DNA of 62,979 bases, counting the filler, from Rhabdomonas costata (taxonomy: Eukaryota), in assembly GCA_019059605.1 (NCBI GenBank). It is 34 parts of 34 records of this genome, joined end to end, with 100 filler letters (N's around TTAATTAATTAA, not from the genome) between each part and the next. Parts side by side here need not be neighbours in the genome. Positions count along the whole stretch, not along the records: positions 50,099 to 51,853 come from JAHMHO010009547.1; 33 more parts are not named here. One strand, written 5' to 3'. The position numbers and the translations under genes were made by a program. Below are positions 50,681 to 51,812 of this stretch, piece by piece. Within the stretch, counting starts at the first letter, position 1, and every line of letters starts with the position of its first letter. The notes under the pieces are model-generated. The model made no database searches. It was not told where the DNA came from and saw only the letters and a program-made list of their open reading frames with translations.

Positions 50681-51812
50681 CGTGACAGTAGTAACTCGGG
50701 GAGAGATGTACATCAGTTCCAGCTCTCCAAACATGTCTCGCTCCTTCAGGTGGTTCTTCACGACCCCGTCGATGGAAACCGCACATTCGCCTGGAAAACC
50801 CCAAAATGAGAGGTCCACCTCCTCATACACAAAGAAATCACATGCCAGTTTAACCCATTCGTATGCGCATTCTGTTGCAGATGCGAGAACTCTGCTGGCG
50901 CACGGTGCACGGTTCAGAAATCATTGATAATGGTGGAGCTATTCCCTGCCGGTCCAGACGAGGTACCCCCACCCCGACTGAATGAAGTGCAAGCGCAGGC
51001 GGAAGGCGGAAGGCGGCAGTCTGCGGCATCCAGGTCTTTCCACGCACTCTTTTCGGGCACGGGGGAGGTGGGCACCTTTGGTGATGACGTAGAAGAAGGC
51101 CTCCTCCAGCTGCTCGCCCTGGTGGAAGATGACGTCGCCCTTCCGGAAGTTCTGGCTGGACATCGCCTCCACTGCGACGAACAGCTCACGGTCGTCGAGG
51201 TGCGCGAAGAGCACGTTGTTCTGCGGAGCCCCACCCGGAAAAAAAACAGGTGAGGCGGCTGTGATGCGGTGAAAAGCTCCCGCCCTGAGGGGGTGGACAT
51301 GAGAAGGATTCAGTGAGCAGGTTGGGCGGGAAAAAGGTGACCTCATTTTGTATAGTTCGTGTATGTGTGTGTGGACCGAGTGCGCACTGCGCTCTCCCGT
51401 TGCTGTTATATGCAGGTTTGTTTCCCTGAAGAAGTCCCCTTTGTTTTCTTGTCTTCTCCCGCGTGCTTGTGTGAAAACAACAACAAGCACACACTTCAGA
51501 CAATGAAACCGGAGAAGCCGCGAGAGAGACAACACACGGCCCACCCAATTGAAGCCACCCTGATACCGAGGACGTTTCTCTCTGCGGAAGGGTGATGGGA
51601 ATGATAGGCACGAAACCTCAACCACCGCAAATCACTGGAAAGGCACACACCTTGAGAATGCTGTTCAGGGCCATAATCTCGTCAGTCGTCTTGGGTACCA
51701 CCACATGGACGTAGGCCTCGGCCTCTTCGTCGCGGATGACCTCGCTGCTGACCGTCCTGCGGCGGCTCTGTGCCGCGGCCTTCACCGCGAGGCTGGGCGT
51801 CGGCATCTCCGT
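50681..51812 (-). CDS. PKAR: PKA regulatory subunit: inhibitor site and CNB-A domain (three exons)
   Basis: Exons about 51812-51651, 51220-51076 and 50790-50681 splice in frame: RRRTVSSE...VVPKT, NNVLFAHLDDRE...GDVIFHQGE...FYVITKGEC...FGELELMYISPRVTTV. Confidence 0.9.

Follow-up and report, generated by a model that had tools for sequence, protein, structure and literature searches.

The stretch of Rhabdomonas costata DNA analyzed here (62,979 bp, which we call the window) is not one locus. It is made of 34 unrelated contigs of 1751-1758 bp each, arranged by size, with stop-codon spacers that read N44-TTAATTAATTAA-N44 between them. What follows depends on public relatives and on a single one of these pieces, a contig of 1755 bp at positions 50099-51853, which carries part of a gene for a PKA regulatory subunit (PKAR). 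The ligand-binding cassette of its first CNB domain (CNB-A) combines the Glu and the Val of the trypanosomatid proteins with the Arg of the canonical cAMP-binding ones, and the question we discuss is what such a site would bind.

The gene lies on the minus strand, and what is present of it runs from the inhibitor site through the CNB-A cassette in three exons with GT..AG intron borders. Exon A (51812-51651) encodes a linker, the inhibitor site, and the lead-in to CNB-A. It ends in ...SILK followed by GT, and the tblastn matches of relatives also end at 51651. The ATG at 51804-51806 could be either the start codon or an internal Met. The inhibitor site, RRRTV (51750-51764), is of the substrate type and aligns with the RRxT of kinetoplastid, diplonemid, and euglenid relatives; in an alignment with 188 units from relatives it falls in the RRx[T/S/A/G] column, N-terminal to CNB-A, as expected of a PKAR inhibitor site. 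Intron 1 (51221-51650; 430 nt, GT..AG, phase 0), for which the exon ends were set by homology, is followed by exon B (51076-51220), which encodes the start of CNB-A (NNVLFAHLDDRE ... FYVITK plus one base). After intron 2 (50791-51075; 285 nt, GT..AG, phase 1), exon C (50681-50790) encodes CNB-A beta strands and the ligand-binding cassette, and ends in ...RVTTVT followed by GT. The cassette itself, FGELELMYISPRVTTV, occupies 50684-50731, and its key codons are GAA for Glu (50717-50719), CGA for Arg (50696-50698), and GTT for Val (50693-50695). Exons B and C align continuously with PKAR units, with the F-G-E...P-R/x...T-V cassette of a CNB-A domain in place. The initial annotation had proposed a PKA regulatory subunit with RRRTV and this cassette, and on that the sequence, the exons, and the relatives all agree.

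Intron 3 starts with the GT at 50680 and continues to the end of the contig (50099-50680), which truncates the gene; the contig holds less than half of it. Searching the whole window by tblastn with seven relatives returns exons A, B, and C only. No fourth exon was found in this search, in which the sole extension beyond 50684 runs through stop codons, and the same search together with a motif scan of all 34 pieces (one match only) found no other PKAR piece in the window, CNB-B included. At the other end of the contig there is a perfect inverted repeat of 38 nt, with arms at 51691-51728 and 51815-51852, the second at the contig end, most likely a fold-back that arose in the assembly or the library. 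Because of it, the sequence upstream of 51814 is unusable, what really precedes the inhibitor site is hidden, and the contig does not fix the N-terminal limit of the protein.

Single exons are short queries. The Pfam cNMP_binding model gives 19.1 and 14.3 bits for single exon frames, below its cut-off of 27.5, and nothing for exon A, which is to be expected because the pieces are only 48 and 37 residues long. Against the PDB, exon B matches RI alpha chains (E about 1e-6), and exon C matches PKAR chains of Plasmodium, yeast, and Toxoplasma (E from 3e-6 to 6e-4). A word-index protein search with single exons scored 0 of 10 candidates in either search, the queries being too short to search a database of that size (5.8 billion). 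An exhaustive search of 1.84 billion representatives with exon B alone reports 54 proteins with E<=0.001, 6 of them with E<=1e-10. Tandem proteins with canonical PKAR units (GELALMYN.PRAAT), up to six or more in one protein, came out on top of that list because HMMER sums repeated matches; P0004 (3779 aa), P0005, P0010, P0017, P0037, and P0053 are among them.

When the three exons are joined by their coordinates into a spliced model of 139 residues, relatives match it without a break over the whole span between inhibitor site and cassette: P0002 (110 bits), P0006 (96), P0003 (81), P0033 (78), P0044 (76), P0028 (73), and P0039 (73). Matches of this strength are well beyond chance. By cluster look-ups, P0003 belongs to Ploeotia vitrea, P0006 to Peranema trichophorum, and P0044 to Entosiphon sulcatum, all three euglenids, and P0028 to Diplonema papillatum; P0002 and P0033 share one 689-kb ENA contig, and P0008, used below, is a JGI protein. 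In order of closeness, euglenid proteins (Ploeotia, Peranema, Entosiphon, and the 689-kb contig) come first, and diplonemid proteins and kinetoplastid PKAR1 come next. The gene had been put forward as a good clue to the taxonomy of the window, and with euglenids as its nearest named relatives it is one. By its cassette, the nearest full unit with a name is unit 2 of Peranema P0006. Searched with that unit, 96 proteins out of 2516 candidates have E<=1e-10, including PKAR1 of Trypanosoma, Leishmania, Phytomonas, and Strigomonas as well as many diplonemid proteins. Compared with solved structures, it scores 252 bits against T. cruzi PKAR and 247 against T. brucei, vs. about 173 against RI alpha and RI beta, and 127 against the Euglena gracilis structure 6RSX.

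To describe the cassettes across the family, we cut 188 units from the fetched proteins and aligned them with the window sequence (189 rows). A unit was kept only if it spans CNB-A from before residue 50 to past residue 130 of the Peranema query unit, which excludes partial units, among them unit 1 of Peranema P0006 (also Glu and Arg); and the rows are search hits, not a census. There is Ala at cassette position 5 in 62 of the 189 rows, 57 of which have Arg at position 12, and Glu at position 5 in 91 rows. Position 12 in these 91 Glu rows is Cys in 43, Ala in 25, Arg in 7, Thr in 6, Val in 6, and something else in 4. The residue after position 12 is Val in 47 of the Glu rows, and position 14 is Ala in 81 of them and Thr in just one, the window. 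The full combination of Glu, Arg, and Val also occurs in only one of the 189 rows, again the window. The pair of Glu and Arg is shared: the seven rows that have it are the window, units 1 and 2 of P0002, units 1 and 2 of the Ploeotia protein, unit 2 of the Peranema protein, and unit 1 of P0008, and all seven belong to one euglenid group. By this alignment, Glu with Arg is a trait common to a euglenid group and not a one-off.

Set beside the features that define the nucleoside-type site, the window cassette has the Glu at position 5 (E311 in T. brucei) and the Val (V319), and it keeps the phosphate-binding Arg where the nucleoside type has a neutral residue (T318). Set beside the canonical cassette FGELAL[ILVM]xxxPRAA, it differs at positions 5 (E), 13 (V), and 14 (T), so that only the Arg fits. 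The description of the cassette as trypanosomatid-type in its Glu and Val and canonical in its Arg is borne out, and Glu and Arg recur in the nearest relatives.

We placed the gene in the family with two trees. A quick tree of 115 rows was calculated after taking out 31 many-domain or canonical multi-unit proteins and 25 kinetoplastid-like proteins. A more careful maximum-likelihood tree (LG+C20+F+G4 with PMSF) has 57 rows, after dropping 39 further proteins, and 306 columns, of which the window row fills 44%. In both, nine canonical PKARs separate from all the rest, with an SH-aLRT of 100 in the 115-row tree and support of 100/100 in the 57-row tree. In the latter, the window groups with the two P0002 units (98/90), and these are joined by Ploeotia unit 1 and P0008 unit 1 (98/90); all five rows have Glu and Arg. 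A wider group of ten rows (88/85) includes seven with Glu and Arg, one with Asp and Arg (P0103), one with Glu and Asn (Entosiphon P0044), and one with Glu and Asp (P0008 unit 2). Kinetoplastid PKAR1 (100/100) is found elsewhere than the window's group, as the sister of a diplonemid clade (97/82). From these sequence comparisons, we regard the family placement of the gene as firm.

A position of the window inside the kinetoplastid PKAR1 clade was also tried, and the AU test rejects it: it costs 33 log-likelihood units (p-AU 0.0017; we defined the group once we knew the tree). The minimum on the 57 rows is five changes for the Arg state and nine for position 5. The direction of Arg loss is not readable from such change counts, and the deep branches of the tree are weak (69/7 and 88/58). 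This matters for the suggestion that the site is an evolutionary intermediate: the suggestion holds in a comparative sense only, as Glu with Arg is found in 7 of the 91 Glu rows and within one euglenid group, but the tree does not show the ancestral state, and the window does not group with kinetoplastid PKAR1.

The second site of the relatives is much more uniform. In a table of 27 rows, every relative on the non-canonical branch for which that region is present has a B site of the form GELEF..H..VADV followed by YxYY. More precisely, the site reads GELEF[IL]..H..VADV, which together with YxYY comes very close to T. cruzi PKAR and preserves both Tyr of the alpha-D lid; according to Ober 2024 (PMC10959531), these two Tyr are needed for high-affinity binding. 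The CNB-B domain of our gene, which is off the contig, probably resembles this trypanosome-like B site, judging by the relatives.

As a side observation, P0129 (Diplonema ambulator), P0130 (D. japonicum), and P0131 have a canonical A site, GELALMYNTPR[TS]ATV, with Ala and Arg. P0129 pairs it with a trypanosome-type B site, GELEFLNNHRTVADV, and YAYY. By their sequences, proteins of the P0129 type are a second natural kind of regulatory subunit that is half switched.

How does the window compare with the systems that have been studied? We start with trypanosomatid PKAR1 (T. brucei 6FLO; T. cruzi 6HYI and 6FTF), which is cAMP-independent and activated by inosine, guanosine, and adenosine. The window has in common with it the RRxT site, the GELELMY core with its Glu, and the Val after position 12; both are on the same Euglenozoa-specific branch (100/100 with respect to the canonical PKARs), and the B site and YxYY helix of the window's relatives are nearly identical to those of T. 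cruzi PKAR. In kinetoplastids, an RRTTV site goes together with the same cassette substitutions, as reported in Bachmaier 2019 (PMC6440977). On the other hand, the window has Arg at position 12, where trypanosomatid PKAR1 has T, V, or A, and it has Thr for Ala at position 14. Its gene has introns, its nearest relatives lack the Tyr that caps the base in the A site, and the four euglenid relatives scanned, unlike trypanosomatid PKAR1, have no Pfam match for a leucine-rich repeat (LRR).

A second comparison is with a protein made in the laboratory. The following values come from Ober 2024 (eLife, PMC10959531). Wild-type TbPKAR has the RBC-A sequence GELELMYQTPTVA. Replacing both Glu (E311A/E435A) lowers inosine potency 1556-fold, and the Val of the cassette accounts for about 17-fold of inosine activation. 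Mutant 4 (T318R/N442R) introduces Arg, giving the RBC-A GELELMYQTPRVA. Its EC50 for inosine is 36 nM vs. 18 nM for the wild type, a difference that the authors do not count as significant; its EC50 for cIMP is 24 uM, and cAMP does not activate it. The A cassette of the window has the same Glu, Arg, and Val as mutant 4, and 10 of the 13 cassette positions are identical. At the level of its residues, the window cassette is the natural counterpart of the mutant 4 A site. The differences are that mutant 4 is artificial, is built on the T. brucei scaffold, and carries Arg in site B too, whereas the B site in the window's group is without Arg at that position.

Three further comparisons help to delimit the branch. 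Euglena gracilis PKAR (PDB 6RSX, titled cAMP-dependent) is also a euglenid protein with two CNB domains, but it combines a canonical A site (GELALMYGTPRAAS) with the B site GEMSLMFNQPCVAT, unlike the branch of the window. From the scores of Peranema P0006 against the solved structures given above (127 bits for 6RSX vs. 252 for T. cruzi PKAR), 6RSX is a different paralogue. Mammalian RI alpha (1RGS, cassette FGELALIYGTPRAATV) has the fold, the G-E, the P-R, and the T-V in common with the window, and the N-terminal part of CNB-A aligns well; it differs in that Ala5, Ala13, and Ala14 are Glu, Val, and Thr in the window, and its inhibitor site is of the pseudosubstrate type, while that of the window, with Thr, is of the substrate type. 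Finally, PKAR3 of Leishmania and T. cruzi is another euglenozoan protein with a non-canonical cassette, a divergent second R subunit. We compare it by its preprint description only, in which it has Gly at CNB-A position 5, no Arg, and an inhibitor of the RGAIS type.

Taken together, these observations point to the front part of a euglenid nuclear, intron-split PKAR gene of the Euglenozoa-specific nucleoside-type branch, with an A site that prefers nucleosides and in which the Arg is tolerated. We give this reading a probability of roughly 0.6. What we observe is the sequence, the gene model, where the gene falls in the family, and how the traits are distributed; the ligand, the binding to PKAC, and all of CNB-B are inferred. 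With such a protein, the catalytic subunit would have the RRRTV site in its active cleft and would be released when ligand binds to the two CNB domains. The Glu at position 5, which in TbPKAR and TcPKAR contacts the 3′ and 5′ OH of the ribose and clashes with a cyclic phosphate, would do the same here, and the Arg at position 12 would be retained and tolerated and would not set the specificity. From this role of the Glu and the tolerated Arg, the A site is predicted to prefer a purine nucleoside and to be insensitive to cAMP. Its response to cyclic nucleotides would be at most weak (micromolar, in the manner of cIMP or cGMP).

Several observations count against this interpretation. The ligand is deduced from an engineered protein of another species, with the T. 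brucei scaffold and both sites changed. CNB-B, the C-terminal helix, and the N-terminus of the gene all lie outside the contig. The Thr at position 14 is unusual. Residue K294 of the T. cruzi protein is not conserved, the window having Ile. Lone exons score highest against canonical RI alpha, Plasmodium, and yeast chains and not against trypanosome chains. There is no near-identical protein among the 146 fetched, the best match having about 50% identity, from which we conclude that the organism's own protein is not in the collections at the lengths searched. And where T. cruzi has the aromatic Y371, which caps the A-site base, ten tabulated relatives of the window's group have A, D, P, S, L, G, or Q. 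That Tyr is kept in the kinetoplastid and canonical rows, in some diplonemids (P0116, P0094, P0129), in units 1 and 2 of Entosiphon P0007, and in unit 2 of Peranema P0060. Because it is absent in the window's group, base recognition in the A site may differ from that of the trypanosomatids.

One could go further and propose that the euglenid A site is a living intermediate of the switch from cAMP to nucleosides. The B site would have changed first, on the euglenozoan stem, then the A site would have gained Glu, and the Arg would have been lost last and repeatedly; the pair of Glu and Arg would then give a ligand profile not seen elsewhere, for instance a nucleoside together with a phosphorylated or cyclic purine. 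We consider this scenario possible but rather unlikely.

A different A-site pocket is a doubtful explanation too, although one with several observations behind it. There, Glu, Arg, and the missing aromatic cap would accommodate another ligand (a nucleoside 5′-monophosphate, or cGMP or cIMP) or produce a true dual response. The conservation of Glu and Arg in seven rows of one group suggests selection rather than drift, and the same group has lost the capping Tyr. In TbPKAR, the added Arg of mutant 4 suffices for some response to cIMP, and the incompatibility of the Glu with a phosphate "is not absolute" (Ober 2024, PMC10959531). But the cyclic-nucleotide response of mutant 4 is about 700-fold weaker than that to inosine, and cAMP is inactive. 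In addition, the residue after the Arg varies freely within the group (Q, S, H, T, D, or V), which is not the look of a tuned phosphate site. Dual specificity, one of the options raised by the initial annotation, is for the same reason not favored: the engineered protein with Glu, Arg, and Val retains its nanomolar inosine potency, gains only a micromolar response to cIMP, and has none to cAMP.

It is quite improbable that site A is degenerate or independent of ligand, with the carboxylate of the Glu paired with the Arg so as to fill the position of phosphate and ribose, and with regulation through the B site only. The side chains of Arg209/333 in RI alpha and of Glu311/435 in TbPKAR do occupy the same spatial position (Ober 2024, PMC10959531), the aromatic cap is absent in the group, and conservation across the branch is much higher at the B site than at the A site. 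On the other side, mutant 4 has the same pair and still responds to nanomolar inosine, and the G, the E, and the remaining cassette of the window are intact.

An ordinary cAMP-binding PKAR, with the Arg holding the cyclic phosphate and the Glu as a neutral substitution, seems to us very improbable. The cassette does have the Arg, the GE pair, and the P-R context of canonical PKARs, and it is against canonical RI alpha that single exons score best; but the tree sets the window apart from the canonical PKARs with full support, euglenids have separate canonical PKARs (Entosiphon P0035 and E. gracilis 6RSX), and in TbPKAR the Glu blocks cAMP activation even beside an Arg. A dead gene copy or an assembly artefact is hardly credible: the contig does end in a fold-back, the gene is truncated, and searches of the protein collections turned up neither a transcript nor an identical protein, but the three open exons with GT..AG borders restore an unbroken alignment to relatives, the conserved residues are all in place, and the fold-back is outside the coding part that we used.

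How PKA lost cAMP control and gained nucleoside sensing in trypanosomes has been an open question since 2019. A full-text literature search, with subscription journals mostly outside its reach, yielded no paper that describes the PKAR cassettes of euglenids or diplonemids, and neither Ober 2024 nor Bachmaier 2019, which compare kinetoplastids with mammals, mentions euglenids or diplonemids. The relatives described here add that the nucleoside-type B site and its lid are common to euglenids, diplonemids, and kinetoplastids, that a euglenid group naturally bears the Glu and Arg A site previously made only by mutagenesis, and that in some diplonemid proteins a nucleoside-type B site goes with an A site of the canonical kind. 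A natural in-between pocket is useful for tracing how PKA stopped sensing cAMP; and, given such graded pocket states, full-length natural proteins are available for binding and activation assays. Public transcriptomes already offer better full-length material than this contig.

The relatives also include many euglenid and diplonemid proteins that consist of two to five complete PKAR units in one reading frame. Examples are P0003 (Ploeotia, 966 aa), P0006 and P0060 (Peranema), P0007 (Entosiphon, 1787 aa), P0062 (Namystynia), P0064 (Diplonema japonicum), P0065 (Lacrimia), and P0002. Within a chain, every unit brings its own RRx[T/S/A/G] site along with a pair of CNB domains, and Pfam reports six CNB stretches in P0003 and nine in P0007. 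A chain of this kind might provide docking sites for several catalytic subunits; alternatively, it may be a polyprotein. We saw no description of chains of PKAR units in literature searches that were run for other purposes, none being aimed at them.

As for the rest of the window, an Rfam scan of its whole length gives 0 matches. The G+C content of its pieces goes from 0.29 (18563-20318) up to 0.57, a spread that leaves room for other genomes or organelles as the source of some of them. Within intron 3 of the PKAR gene, the region 50160-50520 has several copies of a palindromic motif, AAACGTTTAAC or TAAACGTTT, and a direct repeat, GTTTGCACG.T.TTT.GA, is found at 50532 and 50633; the palindromes and the direct repeat together may be a small repeat element.

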